IMG/VR virus record: IMGVR_UViG_3300034418_007243
Location: 32,001 to 96,000 of that record
Source: a virus
Length of the DNA stretch: 64,000 nt
Strand: one strand, 5' to 3'
In this document: one piece after another, positions 978-59,538 of the stretch
Layout: each line of letters opens with the position of its first letter
Numbering within the stretch: position 1 is the first letter of the stretch
Made by a program: the position numbers and the translations under genes
The notes under the pieces: generated by a model
What the model saw: only the letters and a program-made list of their open reading frames with translations
What the model was told of the DNA's origin: nothing
Database searches by the model: none

Positions 978-979
978 CT

Positions 980-1504: not shown

Positions 1505-1505
1505 T

Positions 1506-2444: not shown

Positions 2445-2510
2445 TTAATTTATGAAATTTATTATTAAAGATATGTCATGGTTTGTTGGTTTATACTATG
2501 ACTGACAGCT

Positions 2511-2549
2511 GAAAGCTCTTGTTTAATTATACAAGGGCTTTCTTTTTTT
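2511..2549 (+). terminator. Rho-independent terminator
   Basis: GAAAGCTCTTGT-ttaattat-ACAAGGGCTTTC stem followed by T7. Confidence 0.8.
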
Positions 2550-2563
2550 AAAAACTAATAGTA

Positions 2564-3733: not shown

Positions 3734-3793
3734 ACCTGAAAAGTGTTTATTTGTAAAACAAAGAAAAATTGAGTATATTATATATGTAATGAT

Positions 3794-4375: not shown

Positions 4376-4378
4376 TAT

Positions 4379-5053: not shown

Positions 5054-5253
5054 TGCCTAAGAAAAAAACAACAACTAAGAAAAAAAGCACTGTAAATTCT
5101 GCAGGTAATTATACTAAACCTTCTTTACGTAAAAGATTGTTTAATGAAATAAAAGCTGGCTCTAAAGGTGGAAAACCTGGACAATGGTCTGCACGTAAAG
5201 CACAAATGTTAGCTAAAAGATATAAAGCCGCTGGGGGAGGATATAAAAACTAA
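5053..5253 (+). CDS. Small basic protein, N-terminal half of a DUF5872-like protein
   Basis: YTKPSLRKRL..EIKAGSKGGKPGQWSARKAQMLAKRYKAAGGGY motif. Confidence 0.7.
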   Translation: MPKKKTTTKKKSTVNSAGNYTKPSLRKRLFNEIKAGSKGGKPGQWSARKAQMLAKRYKAAGGGYKN

Positions 5254-5259
5254 AAAGTA

Positions 5260-5556
5260 ATGGACGAGTTATTAGTAAAGCTATTAGAACAAACACCTGT
5301 AATTATTGCTTTGGGTATTGGCATCTATGCTTTATGGAAAGATAAAATAGAAACTAAAAAAGAGATGCAGGAAGAAAGACAACACTTTCTGCAGCAAATA
5401 GCAGAGCTTACATTAAAGCATGCAGATGAAGTAAAACAACTAAACACATATATAAGAGAAAGAGATCTAGAAACCCTTGAAGCTTTAGAGCAAGTAACAG
5501 CAGCTGTTGAAAGTATTAAAACAATGCTTGATAATAAACTGCGATTATTAGATTAA
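5260..5556 (+). CDS. Membrane-anchored coiled-coil protein (possible lysis accessory)
   Basis: One N-terminal hydrophobic helix (PVIIALGIGIYALW) followed by a heptad-like helix. Confidence 0.55.
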   Translation: MDELLVKLLEQTPVIIALGIGIYALWKDKIETKKEMQEERQHFLQQIAELTLKHADEVKQLNTYIRERDLETLEALEQVTAAVESIKTMLDNKLRLLD

Positions 5557-40500: not shown

Positions 40501-43500
40501 TGATTTAGCAAGACAGTATGCAAGCATAACAAAAAAGTATAACGATCTTCCTATAAGTGAAACCTTAGCTGCAAAATTACAGAAAGATTATCAACAAACA
40601 GGATTAGCTCCTATATCTCCATTACAGTTTAGAAACTTTGAAGAATATGTAGAGTTTGTTATAGAAAGAGAAAGATTACGTTCTGTATTATCAACTGAAA
40701 AAATAAATAATAATTTACAATATCAATTTTTATTAGAAGAGATAAAAGATTATTATGAAAATAATACTTATGGAAAAGCTAAAATAGCTAATTATTCTCC
40801 AGAAGTTAAAGAAAGATTTATTGTAAACTATGCTAAAGAAACTTTTCTAAAAAATAAAGCTTTGCAAAACATATATAACAATGACTATATGTTTAAAAAT
40901 ACAGGGCAAAATTTATTTCAAAAATCATATGCTGATAGATTTTTAGATTTAAACAACTTACGTTTTCCACAATTAAAAAATGAATTTCTTCTACTAAATT
41001 ATCTTGAGTATGTAGAGTCACCTACAGGATATAGAAATTTAAAACTTAGCAATCCTAAATTAACAGCAGATCAGAAAAATGTTTTCTTTGAAAATTTAGA
41101 AGATTTAACTGATGAAAAAACTCTTAAAGAAAAGTTTCCTTCATTAGAAGACAATGAAATAAAATATATCATAGACTTTTTTAATGAGTTTAGTCTTTAT
41201 GCTTATTTACAAACCGGGTTAAATACAAAATCTTCTTTCAATTTATCTAGTATAGTAGATCCTGAAGAATTTACTATTATAGCTGAAGAAGCTAAAGCTA
41301 AAGCTCTTAATATATTGAATTCAGAATCTATTTATTCTGAAGAGCTTTTACAAGATTTTTACAGAGTCTTTAATAGAACTAATGGTAATAAAGGTAGAGC
41401 TGTAAAAGGTAGAGGTGTTAACTATAAAATTCAAGGTACAATCTTTACAGAAAAAGGATTAGAATATTTAAAAATAACTCCAAAAACAAAATCTTTTGTT
41501 GAAGATGTAGAATTAATTGAAACTCAACCTATAGTACAAAGTACACGTAAAACATACTCAGGAAAAGTAACTAGCTTACAACCTAATCAAATATTTGTAT
41601 TTGGTTCTAACCCGCTTGGTATTAATGGAAACCCTGCTAAAGGTACAGGTGGAGGAGCACTAGTAGCATATCAAATTGCTGGAGTGAAGCAAGGAGAAAA
41701 AATGGATAATAAACTTTCTGATTCTGGAAAGGCTTGGGGAATAACAACGGTTACAGCTCCTGGTAAGAAAAAAAGTAAAACTCCACAGCAAATTATAGAA
41801 GGTATTAAAAAACTATATGAATATGCTAACAATAATCCTAGAATAGAAGTATTAGTAGCTGATTATTCTGGACCAAGAAATCTTAATGGTTATACAGGTC
41901 AAGAAATGGCAGATATGTTTTCTAATGCAGGACCTATACCGTCTAATATAGTATTTAATGAGAATTTTGATAAGTTAATTGCTACTCAACCTACAGTACA
42001 AAGTGTTACTACTCCTAAAAATAGATTTACAGTAAAACCAAAACAGGCTGCTGACAAGAAGGCTAAAGTTAAAGCCAAAATTGCTACTCAGTATATAGGT
42101 TTTGCTGAAGGTATTTTTGGAAGCAGTACAGCTTTATATGCAGAGCAGATTGGTCAGTATGCTAATACTGGTAACTATAGTTCTGATGATGTAATATTTG
42201 TATCAATACCTGGTAAAAGAGGTAGTGCAGAATTGCAAAAACAAAATCAAGATAGAACCATAAAAGAAGCTATTAAAGCTGTAGAAGCAGGAGCTACTAT
42301 TATTACAGATAATAAAGCTTATATTGATTCTAGCTCTTACAATACAGGAGAAAAAAGATTGTTTGCTAATATGCAAGAAAAAGGATATACTTATTCTGAA
42401 GTAACGGTAGATGGTCAAATTTTAGGTACTTGGTCTAAACCTACTCAACCACAAGACAGCAATCCTAATATAGTTAAGAATAGTAATGGATTGATTGTTA
42501 TTAAAGACCAGTTAAATAATGAAGAAGGTGCAGCTATGGTAGAAAGTTTTAAACCTGTTATAGAAGAAACATCTTTTAAACAAACTGGAGGCTCTGTTTC
42601 ATGGGGTTTTGGTTTACAATGGATGAGGGTAAATAGTATGTCTACTGAACAACGTAAAGGTTTAATAATAGGTAAACAACTTAACGGTAAAGAGATTACT
42701 CAAGAAATGAAAGATAAATTCATTAACGGTGCTGATGCTCAACAATTAGGTATGCCTTTATACGGATATACAAGTATAGATAAGAATGGTAATCCTCTTC
42801 CTAATATACCTACTGAAATTATAACAATGTTGGCTCAAAAAGGTATAGATATATCTGAGTATGATGCTAGTTATAATTCTGTTTATGATAAAAAAGATGG
42901 TGGTAGTCTTATTATTCATCAGGATAATACTGAGCTAAATGAATCACCTATAATAACTATCTCTTTAGGTAGACCTATGAAGTTTATAACTTATGAGTTA
43001 AATGATCCTAATGATTTTAACATAACTGATCCTAAAAATACAGCTTATAATATAGTAAAAAATGTAATAAGCGGGCAAGCTTTAAAAAATAAAATTATAG
43101 ATAAACCTTTTAAATATGGAGAATTAACACCAGGAAATATAATGGATTATGCTAAACAGCTAGATAAAATTGAAGGTGGTGATAAATATTCACAACAAGT
43201 TTTAGATGCTCTTAAAGCTCAGTTTAAAGGAAAGGCTACTACTACAGAATATACTTTGGAGAATGGAGCTATATTAGTTTTTTCAGGTAATAATAGAAAT
43301 GTGTTGCATGAAATAGTATTTGATGAAGCTAGTGATAAAAAACCAATGCCAGAAGGTTTTCCTGAATTAACAGTAACTAAAAATAGATATGATAAGAAAA
43401 CAGATTCTTTTCTTCCTGTACAAGTAAAAACAGATAACTATAGAGTTGTTCTTACTTTAAGAAAAGTACAAGGAACTACAGTAAATAATATAGATACAGC

Positions 43501-47100: not shown

Positions 47101-50056
47101 AGATTTTACTGCTGAAGAATTTAAAGAGTATAAGAAGTATATATCTAAAAAAAATATAGCTAGAGGAAAATTATCAGGTACAGATAGATCTAACTTAATT
47201 AGATTATATAAACAGTTAGGTGAGCTTACATCTAGAAGTGCAACAGAATATTATGTTGATATAATGAATAATTGGCTGTCTAAATTAAATACAAATCCTT
47301 TATATCTAGAAACTGAAAGCCGTACTATTGAAACTCATAATGCTGACGTTATACTTCAAGATTATTTGATTAATCCTTTATTAGCAGAAAATGAAGAATT
47401 CAAAAAATGGTTTGAAGCTAATCATATAAGAAAAGAAAAATGGAATGCTGAAGAAGGAGAGATGCAAGAAGTATGGGAAAGAATATATGCTTGGAATGTA
47501 ACAGAGCCTTCTGACCCTTCAATGTATGAAACATACACAATAAGAGATAGTGTAGGTAATGTTATTGATACTATGAATGGTATGCCTACTATGAACTATT
47601 ATTACAGAGCAGTAAAAAATAAATATAAGACAAGTAAAGTACAAGGAGTTACTATTGATAACAGAGGACGGTGGTTGCCTAAGTCTAGAGAAGAAATGGC
47701 TAAATCAGATGTTGCGGATAAGTATAAGTATATTAATGAAGAGTACTATGAACTGCAACAAAACAAACCTGAGTTATTTGCATTACTAGAAAAACTAAAA
47801 GAACACCATCTTAAAAATCAAGAAGGTCTTGGAAGATATTCCAAATTATATTTGGATATGCCACGTTTTCAAAAAGACAATTTAGAAGGTTTACAAAGTA
47901 CAAGTTTAAATGATGCTAAGAAAAAAGGCTATACAGGTTTAACTTGGTTAGCTAAAAGAATTAGAGGCTTTTTTAAACGTGAAGCAGATGATGCTGATCA
48001 AGGTTTCAATGAGAATCTAAATTTTAATTTAGTACGTGTAGATATGTTTGATAATGAAATTACAAACATTCCTATAGCTGGTTTATATAATTTAGATTAT
48101 GATGATGTTTCTACAGATATTACATATACTATGATGAGGTATATGTTTTCTGCAGAACGTCAAAAACAGTTGATTAACATCTCACCTTTTGTAAGGTCTG
48201 TGCAAAAAACTGTAAAGGATAACCCTATTATTGATACTAAAAAAATAGATAAGGATAATTTCTTAAATAGAAATATTATAAAGTATATTCCTAAAGGAGA
48301 TAAGGTTAGAGAAAAAGCAATAGACAATTTTATTTCTAGAGAGTTTGAAGGACAGAACAAAGCAGGTGTTGCAGCTGATAGTGTCTTTCTAAATAACTTT
48401 TCTAATCTATTATTTAAGAGAGCATCATTTGCTTTCTTTGCATTAAACATACCATCAGCTTTAAAGAACTCTTTAGGTATGAAGTTTCAACATATGATTG
48501 AAGCTGCAGGTGGTGAATATGTAGATATACCTAGTTTGGGTAAAGGAAAAATGTGGGCGTATAGAGTTATGGCTGAATACTCTGGTAAAATGCTATACCA
48601 AAAAAGAGGAGCTTTAACATTAGATCATCAAATTGTAGAAATCTTTGATCCTATACAAGATAGATTTGCAGAGAAGTTTGGTGAAAGATTATCTAGAACT
48701 GTAGCATCTGACGCAGCAGGTTTAAGTTGGTTATATAGCATACGTAAATGGGTAGAAGCACAAGCAGCTATGGAACTGTTTGCCGGTATGGCTTACAAGC
48801 AAAAAATAAATAGACGAGTTAATGGTGAAGTACAAGAAATAAGTTACTTAGATGCTTGGGAACTAAACAACGATAAACAGATAACATTAAAGTCTGGTAT
48901 TGATGTAAGATATGGTAAAAAACCTACACTACATAAATTAAAAGCAGGTGATACTTTGCAATCACTATCTGAGAAATATAATGTCCCTCTTGAAGAGCTT
49001 GAAGATATTTTAGGCAAGCAAAACTTCCAAGAAAAAATACTTGAAGCAGAAAGTTATGAAGCAGATAGACAACAAGAACTAGATGATATAACTCCATTAA
49101 CTGAGGATTCTGATTTACTTGAAAGAGAAAAGTATCAAAATGCTGTAGATTTTATTAATAAAAAATATGATCAAAAAGTAGAAGATACACTTACTATTAA
49201 AATAGATAATACTTTATTTAAGTTATTTAAGAATAGACAACAGCAGGTGCAGAATGATATGGGTGGTGCGTATGCTAAATTTGATCAACCAGAAATGCAA
49301 AGATATTTATGGTTTAGATTTGTTTCTTATATGAGAAAGTATTTTACTACTATGGCTCTTAAGAGATGGGGATTTTCTGGACGTTTATTTAATCCAAGAG
49401 CAAGACTTAATCCTGGATTAGGTGAAGCACAAATGGGTTATTATATTGAAACTGGTAGAACTCTTATTAATATAATGAGAACAGGCGGTAAAGAATTAGC
49501 ATATTTAACATCTTCAGAAAAAGCAGCATTAATGCGTTTTGGTACAGAGGTTGTTATGCTTTGGCTTACAATGATGGCCTTTGGATTATTTGGCTGGGAT
49601 CCTGAAGATGAAGATAGAATTGCTAAACTTAGAGCTAAGACAGGAGCATTACCTTTTCCTTTTTCAGAAACAGATCCTAAAAGACCCTTTAATCTTAAAG
49701 GTTACTTAGATGTACATGCGTTACACTTACTAATGCAAGTAAGAGCAGAAAATGAACAGTTTAATTTATTGACTGGAGGTGTGCAACAGTATGCGTCATT
49801 AACAGATATTAAGTCTGTAGCATTTGGACCTACTATGGATTCATATACGCAAATATACAATGACTTAATGAACATTATGACAGGTAGTTCTAAAGCTCAG
49901 TATACAAGAAGAATTGGACCTTATGAATGGCAACAAAAAGGAGGATCTAAATTACTTGCACACTTAGCAACAACTGTAGGCCTTACAGGTAGTACTGTAG
50001 ATCCTGTTAAAGCTGTTCAAGGTTTCCAAGCATTCCAGGCTAAAGTTAAGAGATAA
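44156..50056 (+). CDS. Large cargo protein with zincin motif and LysM-like insertion
   Basis: 1966 aa; HEFAH..EE at 44597; HKLKAGDTLQSLSEKYNVPLEEL at 48932; hydrophobic C-terminal helices. Confidence 0.7.
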   Translation: MPTCPNINSPEWKALVNNPNIGTFQAYKDFFESGTIRSEQEILDKLEQREMTPINRGISEPNTQELYEEYGMKFELSLNIDSIKQDRATEFADRLSNALGIDYEMITASEAQEITKDAQNPWSGQSAFFFGDKVYFINNRMTTDLVFHEFAHPLVRSLAKQNRKLFENLFNQVQQSKEGQDIINSVLEKYTELDPNSDLFKEEVIVQALEKSYKDKSANIKSSSPFTKAIKNLLYAIKQAIRQVFGKSLPVSKLSAETTLNELANMLEQGEKFSLEKQLITNEDIVAYNKEMINTLTKELQSVEKQDIQASINSFYDKLNIQIEMLKKNKNLDELARIILYTTGNENIFDMKRDLQAYQSKVVRETEKLQDEIAEYRTRVKALANSMYTLEVVLSKMKNHIKDLEKNAETREAMHKAHYYDKIINYWDGFIQEIEKTLSDANVPNDAKIVSLVNSIRRSIRTSKDGINKMMEEGAIDGLWQQLAPMNKDIGERYERIIAELKRKKAPREKINRIFKEYHGMTEEQYNRFKELSNKKAKDGLSVKEDQELATLQGLSKSGLSISKEKIRGLIKGEIGDANYFNSYLEGYLYNTDPIIGGLALYTKNALNEVMIVTQSKMNTFAEELRPLLEAAGYNPTNKGKLGEDVGFLDTVARFNPETGVMEEKKVWTFLNPFKNYRYDEDRLERNLADAYDNWIINNTDAAKKEYLDAKAELREFKTTYMNQEYTSDFYARKERLQKTAVGREVLAYLEDFFQRLREVTEPNNTEIDKLDSYDIVQALWREYRQAHSMYDLNGKLKSNKPDPVTGISPLALAKEMRQYREEGRDFYEWKVRTNAFETAYRDYQQELLAEGVGENHPDYKARMDLWKQRNTRVVIKQEWYEEKRRILAEIKQILDKLNLPENERAKIDQGIVWEKILELTGLYRDQDGQIQGQELSEGSIQEVKALQEELERIKNTSVGNNGLTKIENERLSDLFNIRKERDFTAEEFKEYKKYISKKNIARGKLSGTDRSNLIRLYKQLGELTSRSATEYYVDIMNNWLSKLNTNPLYLETESRTIETHNADVILQDYLINPLLAENEEFKKWFEANHIRKEKWNAEEGEMQEVWERIYAWNVTEPSDPSMYETYTIRDSVGNVIDTMNGMPTMNYYYRAVKNKYKTSKVQGVTIDNRGRWLPKSREEMAKSDVADKYKYINEEYYELQQNKPELFALLEKLKEHHLKNQEGLGRYSKLYLDMPRFQKDNLEGLQSTSLNDAKKKGYTGLTWLAKRIRGFFKREADDADQGFNENLNFNLVRVDMFDNEITNIPIAGLYNLDYDDVSTDITYTMMRYMFSAERQKQLINISPFVRSVQKTVKDNPIIDTKKIDKDNFLNRNIIKYIPKGDKVREKAIDNFISREFEGQNKAGVAADSVFLNNFSNLLFKRASFAFFALNIPSALKNSLGMKFQHMIEAAGGEYVDIPSLGKGKMWAYRVMAEYSGKMLYQKRGALTLDHQIVEIFDPIQDRFAEKFGERLSRTVASDAAGLSWLYSIRKWVEAQAAMELFAGMAYKQKINRRVNGEVQEISYLDAWELNNDKQITLKSGIDVRYGKKPTLHKLKAGDTLQSLSEKYNVPLEELEDILGKQNFQEKILEAESYEADRQQELDDITPLTEDSDLLEREKYQNAVDFINKKYDQKVEDTLTIKIDNTLFKLFKNRQQQVQNDMGGAYAKFDQPEMQRYLWFRFVSYMRKYFTTMALKRWGFSGRLFNPRARLNPGLGEAQMGYYIETGRTLINIMRTGGKELAYLTSSEKAALMRFGTEVVMLWLTMMAFGLFGWDPEDEDRIAKLRAKTGALPFPFSETDPKRPFNLKGYLDVHALHLLMQVRAENEQFNLLTGGVQQYASLTDIKSVAFGPTMDSYTQIYNDLMNIMTGSSKAQYTRRIGPYEWQQKGGSKLLAHLATTVGLTGSTVDPVKAVQGFQAFQAKVKR

Positions 50057-50081
50057 TACTTCTATAGCAGTCTTAGTTGTG

Positions 50082-50115
50082 AAAAAAAAAAGAGAGAAGA
50101 AAAAATCTTCTCTCT
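50082..50115 (-). terminator. Terminator at the convergence of the two gene blocks
   Basis: AGAGAGAAGA-aaaaa-TCTTCTCTCT stem with an A-run on its 5' side (U-tract on - strand). Confidence 0.75.
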
Positions 50116-50140
50116 AGACACATAAGGAATCAAGTTGGCT

Positions 50141-50878
50141 TTACTTATCAAATTTAGTTAAGTTATATTTTTTTATAATGCTTCTAAGTTTGCACTGATA
50201 GCAACTATTCATACAGCTTGTAGCATAAAGATACTTTCCTTTAGCTCTAAATTTTTTAGATTGTTCTACTGTACTGCCACCACATAAAGCTTTAATCCAA
50301 GATTTAACTGTAGGTTTTCCTTTTATTCTAGGAGCATATACTCTTGTTAAAAGAGATACATGACTTCTTAGCGAAAACCAATGAGATTTAAATTTAGTAA
50401 ACTTATCATCTAGATTATCATCAGCTGCTACTAAATATCCTAACTCCTGACCACGGTACTTATGACCAAAAAGATTATTGCCTTCTACGGCTAATCTTGA
50501 TATACCAAAGTTACTTTCTAATATGGCCTGTGCTATTACAATACTAGGTTTTATTTTAGGATAAGACTTGACTTCTTTCTGTGTAGCTTCACCTATAAAA
50601 TTAATGAACTCTTGAATATGTATTTCTTTCCAAGTTTTAAATCTTGATCTTACAATATAATCATTATACTTTATATGTTCTCCTCTCCATTCAGAAGCAG
50701 TTAACCATTTTCTATTTACTGGTAATGCAAAAAGATTGTACTCTGTATCTTTGCTGACATCATATCTGCCAGCATAAACTTCAGTACCAAAATCTTCTTT
50801 AACTTCTTTTTTATTAGTTGATATAAAATTTAAACTAAATAAGTATATAGCTATAGTAGCTAAAAACTTCTTAGTCAT
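50141..50878 (-). CDS. Glucosaminidase (GH73/FlgJ-like) peptidoglycan hydrolase with N-terminal hydrophobic segment
   Basis: IAQAILESNFG.S.LA..GNNLFG.K, F.KF.S, YATS..Y motifs. Confidence 0.85.
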   Translation of the reverse strand: MTKKFLATIAIYLFSLNFISTNKKEVKEDFGTEVYAGRYDVSKDTEYNLFALPVNRKWLTASEWRGEHIKYNDYIVRSRFKTWKEIHIQEFINFIGEATQKEVKSYPKIKPSIVIAQAILESNFGISRLAVEGNNLFGHKYRGQELGYLVAADDNLDDKFTKFKSHWFSLRSHVSLLTRVYAPRIKGKPTVKSWIKALCGGSTVEQSKKFRAKGKYLYATSCMNSCYQCKLRSIIKKYNLTKFDK

Positions 50879-51081
50879 TAGGCTTGATTAAGCATTTTAG
50901 ACCAACCAATAGCAGCTTCTTTAACGTGAGCCATATATCTTAGCTTTTCTTCTTCTGTCTGTTCTGACTTACCAACTTCAAAAGCTCTTTCTATTGCTTC
51001 AATATATTCACCTAAAGTAAACAATCTAGCTTCTTCTCTAATTCCTATTTGAGCAAGATTGTTTTTAAATACATCTGACAT
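50878..51081 (-). CDS. Hypothetical protein
   Basis: 67 aa, stop overlaps start of the downstream gene. Confidence 0.55.
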   Translation of the reverse strand: MSDVFKNNLAQIGIREEARLFTLGEYIEAIERAFEVGKSEQTEEEKLRYMAHVKEAAIGWSKMLNQA

Positions 51082-51102
51082 AATTATTGTAGTTTAATTA
51101 GG

Positions 51103-51131
51103 AAAAAAAGGAGAGTTAAAAATAACTCTCC
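51103..51131 (-). terminator. Rho-independent terminator
   Basis: GGAGAGTTA-aaaa-TAACTCTCC with U-tract on - strand. Confidence 0.7.
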
Positions 51132-51158
51132 CCAAATTTCAAATATGAAAAACGATAG

Positions 51159-51461
51159 CTAATCTTTAACAAATTGTCCATCAACCATTTTACCTGTTCT
51201 ATCTTTAATAGTATGCCAGGCTGATTCAAGACAATCTTCAAGGTTCATATCTTGCATGTGAGCTTGTATCAATAGTGTTACCATTATATCTCCAAGCGCA
51301 TCTTTAATTTCTTCTTTGTCATCTGTTATTATAGCATGACATAGTTCTGATAATTCTTCTACAGTTTTCATAGCTTGTGCATAAGGTTTAGGATCTTTTA
51401 GTATTCCTTTTTCTTCTGCCCATGCTATAATCAAACATTCTAATTCATAATAGTCCATCAT
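51159..51461 (-). CDS. MazG-like nucleotide pyrophosphohydrolase
   Basis: WAEEKGI..Q..KT.EELSEL..EIKDALGD..VTL..CLE.AW..IKDRTGKMVDGQFVK. Confidence 0.85.
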   Translation of the reverse strand: MMDYYELECLIIAWAEEKGILKDPKPYAQAMKTVEELSELCHAIITDDKEEIKDALGDIMVTLLIQAHMQDMNLEDCLESAWHTIKDRTGKMVDGQFVKD

Positions 51462-51503
51462 ATCTTTGATTTTGTGTATACAATATATTGAGATAATTTC
51501 ATA

Positions 51504-52337
51504 TTAAAAAATATATCTTATAGTATTTAAAGGAAAATACTGACTATATATCTTTTTAAATTTATCAATATATTTAGTTTTATTTTTTATTGGATAACGC
51601 ATTACTCCTGATTGATTTTTTATTTCATTAGAAAACCTCATAAGTTCTCTAGCTTCTGGAGATGCTTTTTGCATTTGTAATGGATGATTAGTTAATGCTA
51701 TTACCTCACATTTATTTACACCAGCTAGTTCTTTTACATTACAAAATAAGTCATCATACTCATATGTCCAGCCTGGTACAAATATTACTGGGCTATAGTT
51801 TATATGTACTTCCCATCCTAAATCAATTAATCTATCTATATCATATATTCTAGATATAATTTTTTGCATTTTAGGTTCTAGAATATCTGAATATACTTGA
51901 GGCATTAAACTAACTCTTACTCTTGGTTTTTTGTTAAAGTTATTTACATTAAGTTTCAACAGACCAGGGTATTTAGTAGCCATTGTTGTATTTAATCTTG
52001 GATGATCATCATACCGTTTAAGATAATTATATAAAGATTCAGGAAGATGTTTTTGCATAAGTACAAGATCTGTGTTACATGCAATATCTACCATAGTATA
52101 TACAGGGTCCTGTTGATCTGGTACTTTTGTATAACCTTTTTCCCACTCTACTACAGATTGAAATATGTCATCTACATTAGTATTTACAAATACTCTTTTA
52201 CCATTATACCTAGACATGTAACAGTAAGTATCAACACAACCTCCGTAACAACCATATATTAGATTGGGTGCTATACAATTAGCACTATTATTATTTGGTT
52301 TTGTTATTAAAGTTTTTGTTTTTTGAGTTTTTATCAT
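51504..52337 (-). CDS. Spore photoproduct lyase (SplB)-like radical SAM protein
   Basis: APNLIYGCYGGCVDTYCY Cys cluster, then C.TDL, ATKY, RVRVSLMPQ..LEP..R, G.EVHINYSPVI as in the SPL family. Confidence 0.75.
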   Translation of the reverse strand: MIKTQKTKTLITKPNNNSANCIAPNLIYGCYGGCVDTYCYMSRYNGKRVFVNTNVDDIFQSVVEWEKGYTKVPDQQDPVYTMVDIACNTDLVLMQKHLPESLYNYLKRYDDHPRLNTTMATKYPGLLKLNVNNFNKKPRVRVSLMPQVYSDILEPKMQKIISRIYDIDRLIDLGWEVHINYSPVIFVPGWTYEYDDLFCNVKELAGVNKCEVIALTNHPLQMQKASPEARELMRFSNEIKNQSGVMRYPIKNKTKYIDKFKKIYSQYFPLNTIRYIF

Positions 52338-52515
52338 AATTATATGCGTTCATTATTCTTGCAGGAATTACTTTTGTGTTATTGCATCTATCACAACATC
52401 TGCCATTATTGATAGGTTGAGCATTATGTCCCTTGTCAAATACAACTTTTTGCAATCCTTCTTTGTCAGTTATAACATTACCTAAGATGTCTTTATTACA
52501 GATACTACATTTCAT
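52291..52515 (-). CDS. Small Zn-binding protein
   Basis: MKCSIC...GHNAQPINNGRCCDRCNNTKVIPAR; start moved from 52554 to the MKCSIC Met to reduce overlap. Confidence 0.65.
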   Translation of the reverse strand: MKCSICNKDILGNVITDKEGLQKVVFDKGHNAQPINNGRCCDRCNNTKVIPARIMNAYNYDKNSKNKNFNNKTK

Positions 52516-52528
52516 TTTACTTTTTATT

Positions 52529-52885
52529 TTAATACATTTTGGATATGGATTCATCTATACCATAGTCAATCAATACCTGCCTCCCTTGATAAATTCCCCA
52601 ATTCTGATGATTGTATAGATCGCAGTTATAAAAGTCCATGTGAGGAAATGTGTTTTTGATTTCAAATATATAATTTTCTACAAAATAGTTAATCTCTGTG
52701 CATCTTTTTTGGATCACTATGCCAAACCTGGACCAGACTAAAGGAGCCAATAGTTTTCTGCACTTACCGGATTCCCATACTGCTTTTTCATTTTTACCCT
52801 GCAGATACCCTCTGCGATCTATAGGTATTTTGATGGCATATTTGCCTATCAGAAAAACTACCCTTGTTGATATTTCAATTCTCAT
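52529..52885 (-). CDS. Minimal protein-kinase-like protein
   Basis: STRVVF..YAIKIP (Lys), NE (helix C Glu), DLYNHQNWG (catalytic loop D..N), LIDYG. Confidence 0.65.
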   Translation of the reverse strand: MRIEISTRVVFLIGKYAIKIPIDRRGYLQGKNEKAVWESGKCRKLLAPLVWSRFGIVIQKRCTEINYFVENYIFEIKNTFPHMDFYNCDLYNHQNWGIYQGRQVLIDYGIDESISKMY

Positions 52886-53045
52886 CTAAATGTTTTTTTA
52901 GTCTATTAATTATTTTAGTGGCTAATTTACCCTCTTGAGAAGAAGAACCATTTTTAAATTTAATAAACTCATAGACACCAACTATGTCCTCTATTTCTTC
53001 CAACCTCAATTTTACTTTTACAAAATTATTTTTTTTGCTGATCAT
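52875..53045 (-). CDS. Small hypothetical protein (56 aa, not in ORF track)
   Basis: MISKKNNFVKVKLRLEEIEDIVGVYEFIKFKNGSSSQEGKLATKIINRLKKHLDEN*; ATG supplied by the repeat copy at 53043-53060. Confidence 0.55.
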   Translation of the reverse strand: MISKKNNFVKVKLRLEEIEDIVGVYEFIKFKNGSSSQEGKLATKIINRLKKHLDEN

Positions 53046-53232
53046 CTTTGTTTTGGTTTTCTATCCATCTTCTAAATGCTATTGCTACATCTCCATCATG
53101 CCAATTTTTTTTATCAGCAGTTTCTTCAACATCTTCAATAACAAAATTTAATATGCTATCAAAATTATTTGGAGTGTCTATATTTAGTCTGTTAAAAATA
53201 TCAATCAACATACTTGCTATTTCTTCTTTCAT
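53026..53232 (-). CDS. Small acidic hypothetical protein
   Basis: 68 aa; starts at a repeat ATG and reads through the next repeat as NQNKD. Confidence 0.65.
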   Translation of the reverse strand: MKEEIASMLIDIFNRLNIDTPNNFDSILNFVIEDVEETADKKNWHDGDVAIAFRRWIENQNKDDQQKK

Positions 53233-53398
53233 CTTTGTTTTGTTTTAATAAACTTCTCATTCTACTGTTAACATAATCTTCAGTTTCATCTCTTTCCAAC
53301 CCTGCTTCCATCATTTCTTTATTACCTTGACCATGAATAAAAGCCTGTTTAATTTCCTTCTCTAACTCTTCTATAGTTATTTTTATCTCTTCACTCAT
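53201..53398 (-). CDS. Small acidic hypothetical protein
   Basis: 65 aa; starts at a repeat ATG and reads through the next repeat as KQNKDE. Confidence 0.65.
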   Translation of the reverse strand: MSEEIKITIEELEKEIKQAFIHGQGNKEMMEAGLERDETEDYVNSRMRSLLKQNKDERRNSKYVD

Positions 53399-53413
53399 CT
53401 TTGTTTTGGTTTA

Positions 53414-53528
53414 ATGAGTATCTGGTAGGTAACAGATTTGAACTGTTTCGGGTTCAGGCTTTTTTCACCTTGAGTCGCACCACCCCTTTCTCCAATGTCT
53501 GTCAAGTCAAACCCTACCATCTACTCAT
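53414..53528 (-). ncRNA. tRNA-like structured RNA (non-canonical)
   Basis: On - strand: acceptor-like GGTAGG/CCTACC-A, T-arm AACAG-TTCAAAT-CTGTT, outer stem ATGAGTA/TACTCAT; higher GC than flanks; no canonical D or anticodon arm; reading frame closed. Confidence 0.55.
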
Positions 53529-53540
53529 TTTTGTTTTGGT

Positions 53541-53765
53541 TTAATTCATTAATACTTCTACCCAACCTTTCTCAGAATGTTCTACTTCTGCATCAATACC
53601 TTGATTCTTTAATTTTGTAGCAAGTTTATGAGCAGCTCTCCACAATCCAGGTTCGGGCATCTCATCATGTTCATCATCATAGCAGATAGTACCTCTGCAC
53701 TCATAAAAATTGTCTTCTGAATTATACTCAAAAGTATATCCATCAATTGTTTCTTTCTTATTCAT
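53541..53765 (-). CDS. Small acidic hypothetical protein
   Basis: 74 aa; its TAA lies in the first repeat copy. Confidence 0.65.
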   Translation of the reverse strand: MNKKETIDGYTFEYNSEDNFYECRGTICYDDEHDEMPEPGLWRAAHKLATKLKNQGIDAEVEHSEKGWVEVLMN

Positions 53766-53815
53766 TTTTTTTTATTTTAGTTATGATATTTATTTATCTA
53801 GGCTTAGGGATAGCT

Positions 53816-53850
53816 AAAAAGAAAGCAGAGTTGTTAAGACTCTGCTTTTT
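53816..53850 (-). terminator. Terminator (possibly bidirectional)
   Basis: AAAGCAGAGT-tgttaag-ACTCTGCTTT flanked by A and T runs. Confidence 0.75.
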
Positions 53851-53860
53851 GATTTAACTA

Positions 53861-55384
53861 TTAAGAATAAACTATTGTATCTATGTATGAACTACTTAGT
53901 ACAAGAGATTCCCCTGTTGATAATGTTATTATATAATGTTCATCATCTCTTTTAAATGTGAAATCAACATTAGAATAACCATATAAACTTTCAAGCTCAT
54001 CCTTAATTGCTTTTTGAATAGCAGGATCTAAATCTTGATTTTCTTCAATGGTTTCTTCTGTGCTTTCTATTAGAAATTCATTAACAGAATTTAATTCAGA
54101 TGATTCTTCTTCTGTTTCATCTTCAGTATCATCTTGATATAAGTCAAAGTTTAATTGATTTGACTCATCTTGATTAACTGTAGATTCTACATTTGATACT
54201 GGAGGATCTGGTAAAACAGGGGTAGGATCTGGTGTAATTTCTTCTCCTACTGTAAATTCATTTAACACAAGATAATCTTCTCCTTCATAGGTTTGTATTT
54301 CAGCTACTTGATATATAATATCTTCTACTTCTACTAGACTACCTATTGCTAAATCACCGTAGTCTTCTGCAGTTACCATTATAGAATTAACTTCTGATTT
54401 AACTTCTTCTGTTTCTTCTACAACATTATCTGCAGGAATAAATTGAAGATCTTCTTCATGTTCTTCTGTAACTTCTTCTTCAAAATCATTATCTATAGGA
54501 GATGTGTTATCATCATCAGCATCTTCAATAATATTTGTGTTATCCTCATCTACACTATCTATTACTTCATCATCATCTTCTTCTATGTCAAAGTTTACTA
54601 AATCAAACTCATCCATAAAATATAATAGAACTGAGGTTTGTATATCTAACCAAAGTTTTGGATGTGTTGATTTCAATCCTATTAATATATGATTATAAGC
54701 TGTCCACAATGAATTCTTACCTGTACCATAATGATATCTTTGAGATTCATACTCTTTCATAATAGTAGTACATTGCTCACTTGTGATTAACTTATTTGTA
54801 AAATGTAAATCACCCATGAGATGTCCAAACTTTTTATTGACTAGTTTCTCAAATAAACCAGGATACACTGTAGTAGACGTAGGATCTGTTACAATAATGT
54901 AAGCTTCTTCAGATAAATACTTTTGCTTCATCTTGTTTTTAATATCAAGAAGTTCTTGAAAATAATCTTGAGCATCAGCAACAATATTATCTATCTGATC
55001 TGTAGCTTCTTGTAATGCATTACCTGTATGCTTTCTTTGCCAAGCAGATGTTTTCTTTACCATAGATGCGCCACTTGCATTTACATGCGCACCAACTGCA
55101 CATCTAAATCTAGTTGATTTATCATAAGAGTTTGTCCATGTAAACATCATAGATAAATCAGGATCATTCAGATACTCAATTCTATAAATACCTTGAGCTA
55201 CTCTAGCATCTTGATTACATCTGTATTTTTCATCTAATACAACAAAGCCTGCCGCAGCTAGACTTTTTAATGTTGTATCAATAATATAACCATGAGAAAT
55301 TACCGTATAGGTTTGTGTTGCTGGTGGTAAAGTAGCGTTTATTAAAACACTCTTATCCACAGCTACCTTTGTACTTTTAGGCAT
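53861..55384 (-). CDS. DUF932-like protein with long acidic C-terminal region
   Basis: TYTVISH...NSYDKS..F..AVGA.V...RKHTG N-terminal domain; D/E-rich second half. Confidence 0.55.
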   Translation of the reverse strand: MPKSTKVAVDKSVLINATLPPATQTYTVISHGYIIDTTLKSLAAAGFVVLDEKYRCNQDARVAQGIYRIEYLNDPDLSMMFTWTNSYDKSTRFRCAVGAHVNASGASMVKKTSAWQRKHTGNALQEATDQIDNIVADAQDYFQELLDIKNKMKQKYLSEEAYIIVTDPTSTTVYPGLFEKLVNKKFGHLMGDLHFTNKLITSEQCTTIMKEYESQRYHYGTGKNSLWTAYNHILIGLKSTHPKLWLDIQTSVLLYFMDEFDLVNFDIEEDDDEVIDSVDEDNTNIIEDADDDNTSPIDNDFEEEVTEEHEEDLQFIPADNVVEETEEVKSEVNSIMVTAEDYGDLAIGSLVEVEDIIYQVAEIQTYEGEDYLVLNEFTVGEEITPDPTPVLPDPPVSNVESTVNQDESNQLNFDLYQDDTEDETEEESSELNSVNEFLIESTEETIEENQDLDPAIQKAIKDELESLYGYSNVDFTFKRDDEHYIITLSTGESLVLSSSYIDTIVYS

Positions 55385-55394
55385 AACTTTAATT

Positions 55395-57380
55395 TTAAAA
55401 TAAACTTATTTGATTAGTAAATAATTCAGGACTCATAGATTTTATTTCTTTGTTTATTTTATCTAAATAAAATCCATAATCAATATCATAATCAGACCAT
55501 GATACATCTTGATACTTATTAAATATCTTTTGTAACCATTTGCCTGATACAACATTTATATCCCTGTCATCATTGACATTGTTTTTTATAATTTTTCCGC
55601 CTTTATTTGAGATATAAAACCTTAATGTTTTTTGTAAGTTTTCTGTGCTTACAGTTCCATCTTTTACATAACTATATTTGAACTTCCAATTTCTTGTTAC
55701 TTTAGTTTGACCACAAAAATCAAAAATGTTTTTATTTGTTTTGATATATTTTTTAGGATCAAGCCCGTGTACAAAATAATTGTATATAGCTTTTTGAATA
55801 ATAGTAAAGCTTTTGTTTTTATGTAATGCTTTCTTCAGTTCAAATCTACCTTTGCATTTTGTTTTTGCATAGTAAAACTTACCCTCTTCTTTTTTAAATA
55901 AATACTCTGGATTCTTTGATTGCGTTTTGATAAATGTATCTCTATCAACTTCATTAAATGTAAATATACCAATGTAATTATTTACATCAGGAACAATAAG
56001 CTTTTGATACTGGTCATGTTCTAACTGCAGATTAGTTATCTCTTCCCATTCTTTGCATATCTCCATATATTGTGGAATAGCTTTTTTAGGAATCATAATT
56101 TCTACACCATCTGTATTAGTCATAATAGGTATAGCACCTAATATTCTTTCAGACAACATAGTAAATAACATCATCAATGATAACTGACCATTAATAGTTA
56201 TCTGCATTGTAAACTGAGGATCATACAAAAAAGATGCAGCATCATTACTTAAACCATATGTGGAATTAAGCATAATCTTGTATACATAATTCTTAGGATT
56301 TGATTTAGGAATCTTTTTTCTTTCATCAAACATCCATTCATACAATTCACAAAACTTTTGTTTTGGTAAATGAGCTGGTGCAAATTTATTTCTAATAGCT
56401 AGATTAGGATAGAAACTTGTAACATCTGAAGACATAATAGTCATGTTATCATCTGGTACATATATCCCTTTCTTTACACCATGAACACCACCCAATCCAA
56501 AGTCTACATCAACACCTCTATACTTAACATGTTCTTTAAAACTGCCTTTTAAATTATTAGCATCTAGCACTAAAGTTTGAAACTTAAATAGTAACTGTTG
56601 AAATGCAGAAACATCAAACTTTAAATAAGGTAAAAGTATTTCACTTACTACAATTTGATTTCTATATGTTCTGCTATTTTTAATTTCATACTTGCTTATA
56701 CCAGTTCTTTCTTCTAAGAAATGTAAAAATAATTCTTTAGCAATTCTAGGTTCAGATGCACTGTATAAAGGAATGTTATATTCATTAGTCAAACTGCCTC
56801 TTAATGTTATCAAGTCTTTGCTATGATTCATAATAGCTTTAGTACTCTTCACATCATTAATACAATACTCAATAATTTTATTTATTAGTTCTTTGCTATC
56901 TATATCAGTAGTGTGATGAAGCGGCATGTCTTGAACATTGAGCCAATCCATAGAACATTGAATCCATTTTAATGAACTTCTCTTAGCTGGATTATCCCAA
57001 TGATTTAATTTGAATACATCAATCTGTTTAATTAAAAGCTGACGCTCACTCCATTCCTGAAATTCTTTTGCGTCTTGTCTATTAATACAATCTTGTGCTT
57101 TTATATATACAGCTTCTGCAACTTCAACACCAGACTTGTTAATAAGCCGTGATTTGTTTTTAAGAAGAAAGTTTGTTATCTGAGCATCAAAAGCTAAACC
57201 ATTAAAAGATATATGCCATTCTTTATTCTTTTTATTCTTATCAAGAAAAACATATAAATCTTTTATATCATTATGAAATTTAGAACAACAAAATATTTTT
57301 ATCTCTTCAGTTTTATAATGTTCAAATACTCCTATGAAACAATTAGATAATGTTTCATAATCCATGACATAGTGATTCAT
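55395..57380 (-). CDS. Family B DNA polymerase
   Basis: Exo motifs DYE, FNGLAFD, YCINDV; polymerase motifs SDVTSFYPN, KIMLNSTYG, NTDG; start set at MNHYVMDYE downstream of the terminator. Confidence 0.9.
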   Translation of the reverse strand: MNHYVMDYETLSNCFIGVFEHYKTEEIKIFCCSKFHNDIKDLYVFLDKNKKNKEWHISFNGLAFDAQITNFLLKNKSRLINKSGVEVAEAVYIKAQDCINRQDAKEFQEWSERQLLIKQIDVFKLNHWDNPAKRSSLKWIQCSMDWLNVQDMPLHHTTDIDSKELINKIIEYCINDVKSTKAIMNHSKDLITLRGSLTNEYNIPLYSASEPRIAKELFLHFLEERTGISKYEIKNSRTYRNQIVVSEILLPYLKFDVSAFQQLLFKFQTLVLDANNLKGSFKEHVKYRGVDVDFGLGGVHGVKKGIYVPDDNMTIMSSDVTSFYPNLAIRNKFAPAHLPKQKFCELYEWMFDERKKIPKSNPKNYVYKIMLNSTYGLSNDAASFLYDPQFTMQITINGQLSLMMLFTMLSERILGAIPIMTNTDGVEIMIPKKAIPQYMEICKEWEEITNLQLEHDQYQKLIVPDVNNYIGIFTFNEVDRDTFIKTQSKNPEYLFKKEEGKFYYAKTKCKGRFELKKALHKNKSFTIIQKAIYNYFVHGLDPKKYIKTNKNIFDFCGQTKVTRNWKFKYSYVKDGTVSTENLQKTLRFYISNKGGKIIKNNVNDDRDINVVSGKWLQKIFNKYQDVSWSDYDIDYGFYLDKINKEIKSMSPELFTNQISLF

Positions 57381-57412
57381 AATCTGAAATTTTGTAAGCA
57401 TATAAAAATAAC

Positions 57413-57444
57413 AAAAAAAGGAAGAGAACAAAATATTCTCTTCC
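57413..57444 (-). terminator. Rho-independent terminator
   Basis: GGAAGAGAA-caaaata-TTCTCTTCC with U-tract on - strand. Confidence 0.7.
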
Positions 57445-57474
57445 CTATTTGTTTGGATTTATACTTATATGTTA

Positions 57475-57921
57475 CTACTTAATTATTATATCACTAGGAA
57501 GTATTAACTCTTCATTTGAAGATCCCATTTCTTTAGGTTCTTCTTTGTTAAGAAAATAACGGAAATCAAATTCTCCAGAATTCACAGCAAACATTTCAAC
57601 AAACTTCTCTTGTTCTTTTTTGTCAATGATGTGATACTCTGAAAGTAAACCTACTAATACTCTTTCTTCTTTATACCAAACACCATTTTCTTTTTGCTTA
57701 GTAGATTTAACTTTGTTTCCATTACTGTCTAGTTTTGGAACATATTGAAATTGTTTTTTTTCTTTATTTCCAATTACATATAGTAAAGAAAGTAAAGGAT
57801 CATATACAACTTCATTGTAAGGACAATTGTCTAAAACAGGTATTAATTTAAATGTTTCTTTATTCTGCCATATAGCTTTAACAAGACACATATTTTTACC
57901 TATGTTATTATTATTTTTCAT
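57475..57921 (-). CDS. Hypothetical protein
   Basis: 148 aa ORF in the replication operon. Confidence 0.65.
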   Translation of the reverse strand: MKNNNNIGKNMCLVKAIWQNKETFKLIPVLDNCPYNEVVYDPLLSLLYVIGNKEKKQFQYVPKLDSNGNKVKSTKQKENGVWYKEERVLVGLLSEYHIIDKKEQEKFVEMFAVNSGEFDFRYFLNKEEPKEMGSSNEELILPSDIIIK

Positions 57922-58495
57922 CTGGTAATTTTGAATTAAACGTATGTAAATCTATCATTTTTATTGAAGACTGCAAAATTTCTTTTCTTAAATTAGGTTT
58001 TGAACAAAGTTGTCCTACCTCTTTTAAAAGTTCTTCTTTCACATTTAATAGTTTAGAATAAGTTTCATAATATTTTTCAGGGAACAAATAACTCTCTACA
58101 TGTAATAAATGTCTTCTGTGAGATCTGAAAAAATATAATATTCTTTTCTTATATAATGAAGTTAGCATTGAATATTTACCACTTCTAATTAATGCATAAT
58201 CATTTGCATAATTAGAAAAATCAAATACATAAGCTAACTTATTATCTTCTAACTCAAACATGTCTTCAAAAAGATAGTTATCTAGTAATGCAGCTCTTTC
58301 AAAAGATTTAAAATCTAAATCTTCTCTCTTATGATAAACTACAATAAATCTATTCTCTTCAAACTTAAACATGTCTTTCCAAGCCATATAAGTTTGAACA
58401 GGTACAGTACTTACACCTCTTCTAATTTTTAATAGAGGATATAAAAACAACCTGCTTTTTTGAATATAATCTGCATGTAAGGAATTTAAAAGCAT
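57911..58495 (-). CDS. Hypothetical protein
   Basis: 194 aa ORF in the operon, follows the nuclease gene. Confidence 0.65.
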   Translation of the reverse strand: MLLNSLHADYIQKSRLFLYPLLKIRRGVSTVPVQTYMAWKDMFKFEENRFIVVYHKREDLDFKSFERAALLDNYLFEDMFELEDNKLAYVFDFSNYANDYALIRSGKYSMLTSLYKKRILYFFRSHRRHLLHVESYLFPEKYYETYSKLLNVKEELLKEVGQLCSKPNLRKEILQSSIKMIDLHTFNSKLPDEK

Positions 58496-58506
58496 TCATT
58501 TTTATT

Positions 58507-59538
58507 TTATAGTTTAACATTAGATAAAGCAAATGCTTTAGGAAGCTTAAACTCTTTACTTTGAAAATGATACTCTGCATCTTCAAAAGTATTAAGCATC
58601 ATAGCATCCCACTTTTTAAAAGTATCATCTGATACATTAAAAGAATATAGTTGATCATACTTATCAAATACTATAAAATTAAAATTTATAATCCAACCTG
58701 CATTAACTACATCAGATAAAAAGTCTTTTACTAGTTTTTTGTAAATGCTGGCTTGTAACCAATAGTTCCAATAATCTACAGACTCTTCAAACTTTTGTAT
58801 AGACTTGCTGGTTGTTTTAAAATCATTTATTGTAACTACTTGATTTACTACATCAACAACAAGATTATCAATTATACCTTTTAAACCAAAAGAATATTTA
58901 TCATTTGGTAAACTCATTGACAATTCTAATTCATTATAGACTCCAATTTTTGTACCATCATGTTGTAAATCTAAACCTATAAGATTTCTTGTTTTTTCAT
59001 CTGCTTTTATGATCTCAGCTCTTCTTGAACATCTATCTAATATAGCAGCATCTATTATAGTTCTGTTTTCTTTTATCTTAAGAAACTCAAAGTAATCTAT
59101 ACCTTTTACATCTGCTATTTTTTCAATTCTTTTAGAATCTTCTTTTAGTCTTTGATGTAAATTCTTTTCTTCAAGTTGTTTTAGAATGACAGATTCATAA
59201 TCTCTTAATGATTTAGAAGGATCAGGATCTAATTCATATTCTTTAAAGACATTGTTAATAATTTCTATAGAACTTTCGCTTGGCAAAGATTGCGGAGCTA
59301 CAATAAATTTGCTGTCAAAATCTAAACCATCAAGCACTAAGTAATGTATAACAATTCCCTCTAGTAAATACTTAGCAATTTTCTCCTCTTTATCTTTAAG
59401 AACATATTCTTTATAAAATCTTTGAGGAGATTCAAGCAGCTTATTTAAGCTGCTATAACTAAAATTAAATTCTTTGTTGAAGAATTCTGTCTCTAACATG
59501 TTTTTGTCAACTGTATTGACTGTATTTGTATTAATCAT
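58507..59538 (-). CDS. PD-(D/E)XK exonuclease (RecB/Cas4-like superfamily)
   Basis: FSYSSL..., E, LKGIIDNL, INDFKTT, YWLQASIY. Confidence 0.8.
   Translation of the reverse strand: MINTNTVNTVDKNMLETEFFNKEFNFSYSSLNKLLESPQRFYKEYVLKDKEEKIAKYLLEGIVIHYLVLDGLDFDSKFIVAPQSLPSESSIEIINNVFKEYELDPDPSKSLRDYESVILKQLEEKNLHQRLKEDSKRIEKIADVKGIDYFEFLKIKENRTIIDAAILDRCSRRAEIIKADEKTRNLIGLDLQHDGTKIGVYNELELSMSLPNDKYSFGLKGIIDNLVVDVVNQVVTINDFKTTSKSIQKFEESVDYWNYWLQASIYKKLVKDFLSDVVNAGWIINFNFIVFDKYDQLYSFNVSDDTFKKWDAMMLNTFEDAEYHFQSKEFKLPKAFALSNVKL

Follow-up and report, generated by a model that had tools for sequence, protein, structure and literature searches.

A 19-bp stop-start repeat that probably joins and exchanges small gene cassettes in unrelated phages

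The DNA analysed here (the window) is a stretch of 64,000 nucleotides, positions 32,001 to 96,000 of the IMG/VR virus record IMGVR_UViG_3300034418_007243, which is 109,874 bp long in full and has direct terminal repeats. On its minus strand the window carries an array of short open reading frames (ORFs) set apart by copies of a 19-bp repeat with the consensus TTAAACCAAAACAAAGATG. The minus-strand order is a 507-aa gene, a hairpin, a 74-aa cassette (c74), an RNA-like unit, cassettes of 65, 68 and 56 aa (c65, c68 and c56) and a 118-aa gene (p118), the start of which is overlapped by the 56-aa ORF (Table 1). Here we describe the repeat, its distribution and the variation of the arrays around it. 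The repeat is probably a translation start and, at the same time, a splice point at which phages swap small genes.

A pattern search of the window found four minus-strand matches to the consensus within 53043-53544, spaced 130, 166 and 187 bp apart, the same count and spacings that were given in a preliminary description of this DNA. The chance expectation is 0.10 matches, and none of 100 shuffles of the window gave four. The whole record holds no further copy and no match to a reversed control pattern, and a shorter core of the repeat is found elsewhere in the window at a frequency not above chance. A genome-wide promoter or ribosome-binding site of this phage was ruled out as the identity of the repeat, all four copies in the genome being inside the array. 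Three of the four copies terminate in the ATG of an ORF (65, 68 and 56 aa); the ATG of copy 4 (53526-8) yields only MSRW before a stop, and the non-coding-looking unit comes next. The upstream gene had been described as either stopping in the TAA of the repeat or reading through it, and both cases are present. The 74-aa ORF stops there, while the 65-aa ORF passes through copy 2 as ..LLKQNKDE.. and the 68-aa ORF through copy 1 as ..ENQNKDD.. The ORFs between the repeats are unrelated, again as first described: c74, c65, c68 and c56 have no mutual similarity and no PHROG or Pfam family, and c74 has no usable match in the ESM Atlas.

Table 1. Features of the array and its surroundings (window coordinates)
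Feature	Position	Strand	Remark
118-aa gene (phrog_4301)	52529..52885	-	downstream anchor of the array
Cassette c56 (56 aa, ORFan)	52875..53045	-	in L222, not in L221
Cassette c68 (68 aa, ORFan)	53026..53232	-	homologues in L006 and L033 beside different cassettes
Repeat copy 1 (GAAAACCAAAACAAAGATG), 2 mismatches	53043..53061	-	5' TTA/TAA lost; ATG is the start of the 56-aa ORF
Cassette c65 (65 aa, ORFan)	53201..53398	-	85%-identical copy in L221
Repeat copy 2 (TTAAAACAAAACAAAGATG), 1 mismatch	53230..53248	-	ATG is the start of the 68-aa ORF
Repeat copy 3 (consensus), 0 mismatches	53396..53414	-	ATG is the start of the 65-aa ORF
Non-coding-looking cassette, 111 nt	53415..53525	-	between repeat copies 4 and 3
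Repeat copy 4 (TTAAACCAAAACAAAAATG), 1 mismatch	53526..53544	-	TAA terminates the 74-aa ORF
Cassette c74 (74 aa, ORFan)	53541..53765	-	opens the array; ends in the TAA of repeat copy 4
Terminator-like hairpin	53822..53848	-	between the 507-aa gene and the array
PD-(D/E)XK (exonuclease VIII-like) nuclease	58507..59538	-	adjoins an unassigned 353-aa gene

Two close relatives, L221 and L222, carry different versions of the array. Their flanking DNA is 95.7-96.1% identical to that of the window. The DNA polymerase protein of L221 is 99% identical to that of the window, and the 507-aa protein is 90% identical by tblastn (92% in another comparison) in L221 and 96% identical in L222. In the window the array reads c74, RNA, c65, c68 and c56 and is followed by genes p118, p87 and p277. 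In L221 it reads X1, X2 and c65, followed by p118; in L222 it reads X1, X3 and c56, followed by p118, a c74 cassette and p277. Each of these differences starts and stops at a repeat. Cassette content changes exactly at the repeats, the opposite of what would speak against the recombination role put forward in the preliminary description. The c65 copy of L221 has the same repeats on its flanks and other neighbours on either side, and because it is 85% identical against a backbone of about 96% it is a foreign allele rather than a vertical remnant. Homologues of c74 lie after p118 in L222, within the array of an unrelated phage (G005), and in L049 and L129. A perfect repeat stands directly at the start of p118 in L221, and a decayed copy (12/19 positions) in the window. 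The closest IMG/VR relative, a 24,120-bp contig (L005, with L220 as its counterpart in the metagenome collection), has a 507-aa protein 95% identical to that of the window and ends about 100 bp past this gene, where the array begins, so it gives no array. That end may be an assembly break due to population variation in the array.

Arrays of this kind are widespread among viral sequences. A scan of IMG/VR for TTAAAMCAAAACAAARATG returned at least 115 stretches, many with 2-6 exact copies, and in these loci (914 kb) the copies ending in ATG comprise 126 exact, 108 one-mismatch and 64 two-mismatch instances. Within each locus all copies share a strand and form arrays of at most 21 members, about 80-750 bp apart, and across all carriers the arrays range from 3 to 24 copies. 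In whole records most copies are confined to one or two local patches; the reversed pattern used as control has no match there. A 242-kb genome (G001) has 24 copies, 22 of them at 110-5540 and outliers at 15.8 and 44.3 kb. A 380-kb genome (G003) has 20, at 90.2-92.3 kb and 374.6-380.2 kb; a 126-kb genome (G005) has 13, at 20.0-23.1 kb; and a 210-kb genome (G002) has 11, ten at 53-58 kb and one at 46.2 kb. The repeat is the most frequent complex 14-mer in all four of these genomes. Other exact 14-17-mers with 11 repeats each are AATGGAGCTCAAGGTAC in G005 and TAGCTAGAGAAACTGC in G003.

The carriers represent at least four unrelated phage lineages of 110-380 kb with few or no shared proteins. The genome of the window (G000) and G004 have 43 ORFs in common at 47% identity, and G002 and G003 about 100. 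G001 and G005 have only 8-23 ORFs in common with any other carrier, and G000 has 0-4 in common with the large phages. All six array-bearing genomes have a G+C content of 30-31%. No relative of the phage by DNA was found among cultured phages. A crAss-like identity was not supported, the DNA polymerase being family-A-like and at most 34% identical to those of cultured phages. The early transcripts of phi14:2 have no common motif. A full-text search of the available literature library for the repeat motif found no paper with it, and a broader keyword search turned up nothing relevant either.

Bacterial genomes do not use the repeat. In the 596 Gb of bacterial and archaeal genomes searched, matches to the exact 19-mer amount to 19 scattered stretches. 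Four multi-copy stretches from bacterial bins (L127, L129, L134 and L138) are probably mis-binned phage DNA because they are phage-type arrays on contigs binned into unrelated taxa, and the remaining stretches are single chance matches inside genes. A 17-mer core with at most one mismatch gave about 53 matches in 301 genomes of the class of G006, a Crocinitomicaceae metagenome-assembled genome, versus about 63 for the reversed control. Since the bacterial counts are at chance level, the motif is phage-specific and not a host consensus, and a host translation consensus was ruled out as its identity.

The pattern seen in the close relatives extends to the whole collection of arrays. Among recurrent upstream flanks (seen at least twice), 23 of 43 clusters join more than one downstream sequence, and 28 of the 48 recurrent downstream clusters occur with two or more upstream partners. 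Homology is frequently 100% up to the repeat, with nothing beyond, and array maps show the same cassette with varying neighbours and reorderings (e.g. clusters 0, 4, 9, 10 and 12). The ends of homology blocks between contigs fall at a repeat (within a window of about 30 nt) in 185 of 1,035 cases on the right and 196 of 1,051 on the left. Breakpoints at the repeat make up 18% of the total, where about 1% would be expected, and they are most frequent at +19 and -1..+1. Between unrelated genomes, the only DNA similarity or the best of it falls in cassettes of the arrays. G000 and G005 match in nucleotide sequence solely at window 53525-53792 (c74 and repeat copy 4), a segment that lies inside the G005 array, the sole match between G004 and G005 is within both arrays, and the matches of highest identity between G001 and G003 and between G001 and G005 fall in arrays. 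The proposal in the preliminary description that the repeat is a recombination anchor is supported by these varying flank partners, by the clustering of breakpoints at the repeat and by the cassettes that unrelated phages have in common. In comparisons between pairs of partners, 81% were mosaic at repeat junctions versus 53% at 823 ordinary same-strand gene junctions of the same loci; counted per site, mosaicism is 90% versus 60%.

The repeat itself has the anatomy of a junction between genes. Its frequency table was built from 237 non-redundant instances chosen at two mismatches or fewer, and only the boundaries and flanks of the table are unbiased. With position 0 as the A of ATG, there is no conservation upstream of -17; conservation sets in abruptly at -16/-15, is near-invariant to the ATG and runs to +8. 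Position +3 is A in 92%, and weaker conservation continues through AGTAAA (Met-Ser-Lys). The full form is approximately (T)TAAACCAAAACAAAGATGAGTAAA, with a stop in all three frames and an ATG. Upstream ORFs stop at the TAA inside the repeat (offset 1) in 62 of 261 cases, with varying protein ends. The TGA made by ATGA (offset 17) is used in 52 of 261, giving proteins that end in ..KPKQR, and the TAA of ATGAGTAAA (offset 21) in 90 of 261, giving ..LNQNKDE. The extended repeat therefore has three-frame stops around one start codon.

The leader of the repeat has A at -14, -13, -12, -6 and -3. In F. johnsoniae initiation is raised by A at -3, -6, -12 and -13 and by an A-run at -14..-11 (Baez et al. 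2019, PMC6847099), and the repeat has A at every single position that is favourable there. Over -16..+3, bases at repeat starts are predicted to be unpaired with a probability of 0.68, versus 0.55 at other ORF starts of the same loci (0.55-0.58 over other starts in general), with equal flanks. The genes of G000 lack a Shine-Dalgarno (SD) sequence, an SD-like 4-mer being found in 3 of 84 starts, and are A-rich at -14..-10, which fits a Bacteroidota-type host. The fixed ATG register and the Bacteroidia determinants fit a role in translation start, and the anatomy as a whole supports the repeat as a putative standard termination-reinitiation junction. An 8-nt complementarity of UUAAACCA to a conserved 16S segment was dropped as likely chance. 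A variant ending ..AAAGAAG is present in the arrays of G005, G001, G003 and G002, and at 748-769 of L222, where an ATG follows (AAAGAAGATG); it resembles the junction with 3 nt inserted.

These properties could mean that the repeat is an expression signal only for a class of small genes, either an unusually efficient leader for initiation or reinitiation or the binding site of a host or phage factor, and that the shuffling around it is ordinary mosaicism. Such a signal would account for the constant distance to the ATG, the placement of A at -3, -6, -12 and -13, the leader predicted to be open and the stops in three frames. Mosaicism reaches 53% even at ordinary junctions, genes such as p118 and p277 move independently of the repeat, and the start-associated sequence (SAS) of Cluster K mycobacteriophages is a precedent for which no recombination role was proposed. 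We nevertheless regard this explanation as unlikely. A translation optimum should drift as the other starts of G000 do, whereas the repeat is identical over 19-25 nt in unrelated phages and is missing from bacterial genomes above chance. No phage protein that could read it is common to all carriers. In addition, the breakpoints match the edges of the repeat at single-base resolution, and its junctions are more mosaic than the control junctions.

The array contains no terminator-like hairpin, the nearest being at 53848-53822 and 51133-51108. Because the latter is the next minus-strand terminator after the former, the array and four downstream genes look like a single transcription unit. Promoter-like matches in 50000-58000 number 52 versus 49 in shuffles, and none is inside a repeat. 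A role in transcription or RNA processing would make the repeat either a promoter for a phage RNA polymerase, giving near-leaderless mRNAs, or an RNase site that makes monocistronic units. Its length and exactness are like those of single-subunit phage RNA polymerase promoters, and it stands between every gene pair of an array that has no internal terminators. We consider this highly improbable, given that the carriers are unrelated and have no common polymerase or nuclease, that no sigma-70 or Bacteroidota promoter consensus is matched, and that three-frame stops with an invariant ATG indicate a ribosome and not an RNA polymerase.

No tyrosine integrase is apparent in the carriers. The Phage_integrase family (PF00589) is absent from G000, G001, G002, G003 and G005, two of which are rated complete, and is matched in all 14 control genomes. 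Of the five other array-bearing genomes, at most two contain a homologue of any given G000 protein, and a shared trans-acting protein was rejected because none was found in the protein comparison of carriers. G000 encodes the PD-(D/E)XK nuclease of Table 1, which is a candidate recombination function only, and also an HNH endonuclease. The part in exchange that the preliminary description suggested for a phage exonuclease has no support beyond the presence of the PD-(D/E)XK nuclease. The repeat is A-rich and asymmetric and has no self-complementarity; within the array a strong inverted repeat is confined to the RNA-like cassette. The preliminary description had envisaged an integrase-free, integron-like array. 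The exchange of cassettes at the repeat and the lack of an integrase have held up, and the structural likeness to an integron has not, there being no attC-type hairpins.

The sharp boundaries and extreme sequence conservation of the repeat, its direct copies on the flanks of cassettes and the two nucleases of G000 would also be compatible with a core site for site-specific or nuclease-driven mobility of the integron style, driven by an unrecognised recombinase, a homing endonuclease or a host enzyme. This seems very improbable to us. Besides the missing integrase and the lack of any widely shared G000 protein, the repeat is unlike attC and typical recombinase cores in being asymmetric and having no inverted-repeat arms, and a pure DNA site would leave the fixed start-codon register unexplained. 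The simplest reading would instead be that general recombination functions of the phage or its host use the 19-25 bp of identity.

We therefore favour, with a probability of roughly 0.6, a double role for the repeat, in which a stop-start adaptor that joins swappable small genes also provides the microhomology at which they are exchanged. Exchange at the repeats is supported by the comparison of arrays, and for its mechanism we infer the following. The repeat would be a phage-specific, start-associated junction by which small genes follow one another head to tail as a polycistronic array. At the mRNA level it would end the upstream ORF in any frame, the first option being the TAA at -15 and, in the other frames, the TGA from ATGA or the TAA from ATGAGTAAA. 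The ribosome would then meet an unstructured, SD-less, A-rich leader (A at -3, -6, -12 and -13) and the ATG. With stop, leader and ATG in common, every cassette would thus have the same termination-and-reinitiation context. At the DNA level the 19-25 identical bases are the sole homology between adjacent unrelated cassettes, and the repeats would act as crossover points for homologous or microhomology-mediated recombination, both within arrays and between co-infecting phages. Whole stop-to-start units would be gained, lost, replaced or moved without a dedicated integrase. Because only near-identical copies take part, recombination would keep the repeat uniform across the lineages that share a host pool.

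Several points weigh against the double role. Ordinary junctions in the same loci are also highly mosaic (0.53 vs 0.81), and therefore the repeat raises and sharply localises exchange and is not required for it. Small genes also move independently of the repeat: the 118-aa gene is 96% identical in a repeat-free context, and the 277-aa gene has 75-80% identical copies in more than 80 contigs, most of them repeat-free and with differing synteny. The leader keeps 93-95% identity whereas that of homologous cassette ORFs spans 47-95%, a comparison that is biased because the instances were chosen by motif match. A length of 19-25 bp is short for efficient homologous recombination. The exact C and G positions of the repeat are unexplained by the known A-rich determinants of translation, and a sequence-specific reader, protein or RNA, may recognise it. 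Finally, the window shows no enrichment of the Bacteroidota -33/-7 promoter pattern.

An extension of the double role concerns the uniformity of the repeat among carriers. Unrelated phages with a common host pool may have converged on, or spread, one 25-nt 'plug standard', an adaptor of all-frame stops and a start through which any small gene or RNA could move between phages and be expressed at once. Its uniformity would then stem from selection for recombinational compatibility and not from an enzyme. We offer this tentatively, at somewhat less than even odds.

The RNA-like cassette is the one unit of the array that appears not to encode a protein. The preliminary description had listed one RNA unit, and structure favours this: the cassette is G+C-richer and structured, folds with z = -4.4 and has a terminal inverted repeat with a stem of 14-17 bp (17 nt at 88% complementarity). 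The stem is acceptor-like, and the hairpin AACAG-TTCAAAT-CTGTT resembles a T arm. Membership of a known family is the part that gained no support. The cassette has no Rfam match even at E<=10, and ARAGORN finds no tRNA at default or -ps and only a poor intron-bearing model at ps80. A tRNA or tmRNA identity was set aside, as ARAGORN and Rfam (including RF00005) recognise none convincingly. DNA relatives were found neither in the fetched loci nor, with three patterns, in IMG/VR.

A 41-aa ORF annotated across the RNA-like cassette has six database relatives (P0001-P0006) at 63-90% identity, all of which end in ..KPKQR, i.e. the repeat comes next. One cluster of these database 'proteins' is found on 35 contigs, the longest of 291 kb. 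About 14 middle codons of P0006 match the window in another reading frame, and for this reason the nucleotides of the cassette appear conserved and its reading frame not. From the database translations, P0005 implies a double change from G-C to A-T in the acceptor-like stem, equivalent to one compensatory change. Conserved nucleotides without a conserved frame argue for a non-coding element at 53415-53525, which looks like a mobile small-RNA cassette with no known family matched.

The ORF downstream of the repeat has a median length of 60 aa in the IMG/VR loci. The 259 cassette proteins fall into 187 clusters, and more than 90% of the cassette genes are ORFans, so that the early (anti-host) function suggested in the preliminary description gains no support. 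Pfam matches were obtained for only about ten of 147 cassette representatives, mainly the larger ones, and these are thymidylate synthase, LemA, C5 methylase, spore photoproduct lyase (SPL), PD-(D/E)XK, SNF2 and DUF1653. Cassette cluster 3 is a recurrent 88-aa cassette with a HELLH (HExxH-like) motif (e.g. L019:8091-8354 and L030:3993-4277). It could be a mini metallopeptidase, and its protein has no match among cultured phages.

Some neighbours of the array have histories of their own. The 118-aa gene has a 96%-identical copy at L279:3486-3839, on an otherwise unrelated contig without any repeat, whereas for L221 and L222, although these are close relatives, identity of the gene is only 58-64%. 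The SPL-like 277-aa gene (PF20903; window 51504-52337, minus strand) is found at 75-80% identity in at least 80 IMG/VR contigs. Its neighbours vary, the gene being placed before or after the polymerase or beside c74 homologues, and it looks like a highly mobile auxiliary gene. Elsewhere in the window a 4198-aa protein (31553-44149, plus strand) has phrog_2072 as its sole match, over residues 3335-3478.

Phages carry many small ORFans in hypervariable regions, and many of these are being linked to host takeover and counter-defence. To our knowledge, the movement of small ORFans between phages is poorly understood outside the T4 group. The motif offers a concrete and testable mechanism for cross-lineage gene flow without an integrase, and it is a simple sequence handle for finding such arrays in metagenomes. 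The resulting catalogue provides hundreds of cassette genes and at least one putative small RNA for functional screening. As a natural portable stop-start adaptor for SD-less (probably Bacteroidota) hosts, the repeat may also be of use in operon design. If the 'plug standard' is true, it would amount to a communal, integrase-free cassette pool for phage accessory genes.

The closest functional analogue of the repeat is the promoter early stem-loop (PeSL) of T4-type phages, and the closest positional analogue the SAS. PeSLs are repeated promoter-terminator units of hyperplastic regions, and recombination between them shuffles ORFans (PMC2839356, PMC4122927); mini-circles have been demonstrated (Arbiol et al. 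2010, PMC2839356; Comeau et al. 2014, PMC4122927). Both PeSLs and the repeat are short regulatory repeats beside small, mostly ORFan genes in hyperplastic regions, in both the repeats are where close relatives differ by indels and replacements, and for both an integrase-free exchange by homologous recombination between repeats is proposed. PeSLs differ in that they combine a sigma-70-type promoter with a terminator stem-loop, act on transcription and are confined to T4-like myoviruses. The repeat described here has neither a sigma-70-like promoter nor a stem-loop terminator; it includes a start codon and three-frame stops, is shorter (19-25 nt) and is present in unrelated lineages.

The SAS is found at the non-structural genes of Cluster K mycobacteriophages (Pope et al. 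2011, PMC3203893). Like the repeat, it is asymmetric and phage-specific, lies in one orientation just upstream of the ATG and is virtually absent from hosts; it frequently holds the stop of the upstream gene and precedes genes of different families. The SAS, however, is G+C-rich, 13 bp long and built around an SD core; its copies stand 3-7 bp from the start and are scattered over half a genome. It is confined to one phage cluster, and no shuffling role has been proposed for it. The repeat is SD-less, A-rich, fused to the ATG, arranged in tight arrays, present across lineages and located at mosaic breakpoints. The SAS consensus GGGATAGGAGCCC with its SD core is not found in the repeat consensus. 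Because the sequences are unrelated, the two are the same kind of element and not the same family.

Integron arrays share with those described here the same-orientation short, mostly promoterless and unrelated ORFs around a recurrent site, and a content that varies between relatives. The phage arrays differ in having no IntI-type integrase, in a site that is a direct asymmetric 19-25-mer and not an attC hairpin, in the probable use of this site as a translation start, and in their location in lytic-phage genomes. The SD-less translation initiation regions of Bacteroidia (PMC6847099) are like the repeat in their A at -3, -6, -12 and -13, the A-run at -14..-12 and low structure. Those of the host are a loose A-rich preference, whereas the repeat is an exact 19-25-mer unused by bacterial genomes. 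The repeat behaves as PeSLs and SASs do and has none of their sequence or structural features, and its array is not an integron. Its distinctive property is that of a translation-level, three-frame stop-start adaptor common to unrelated phage lineages.

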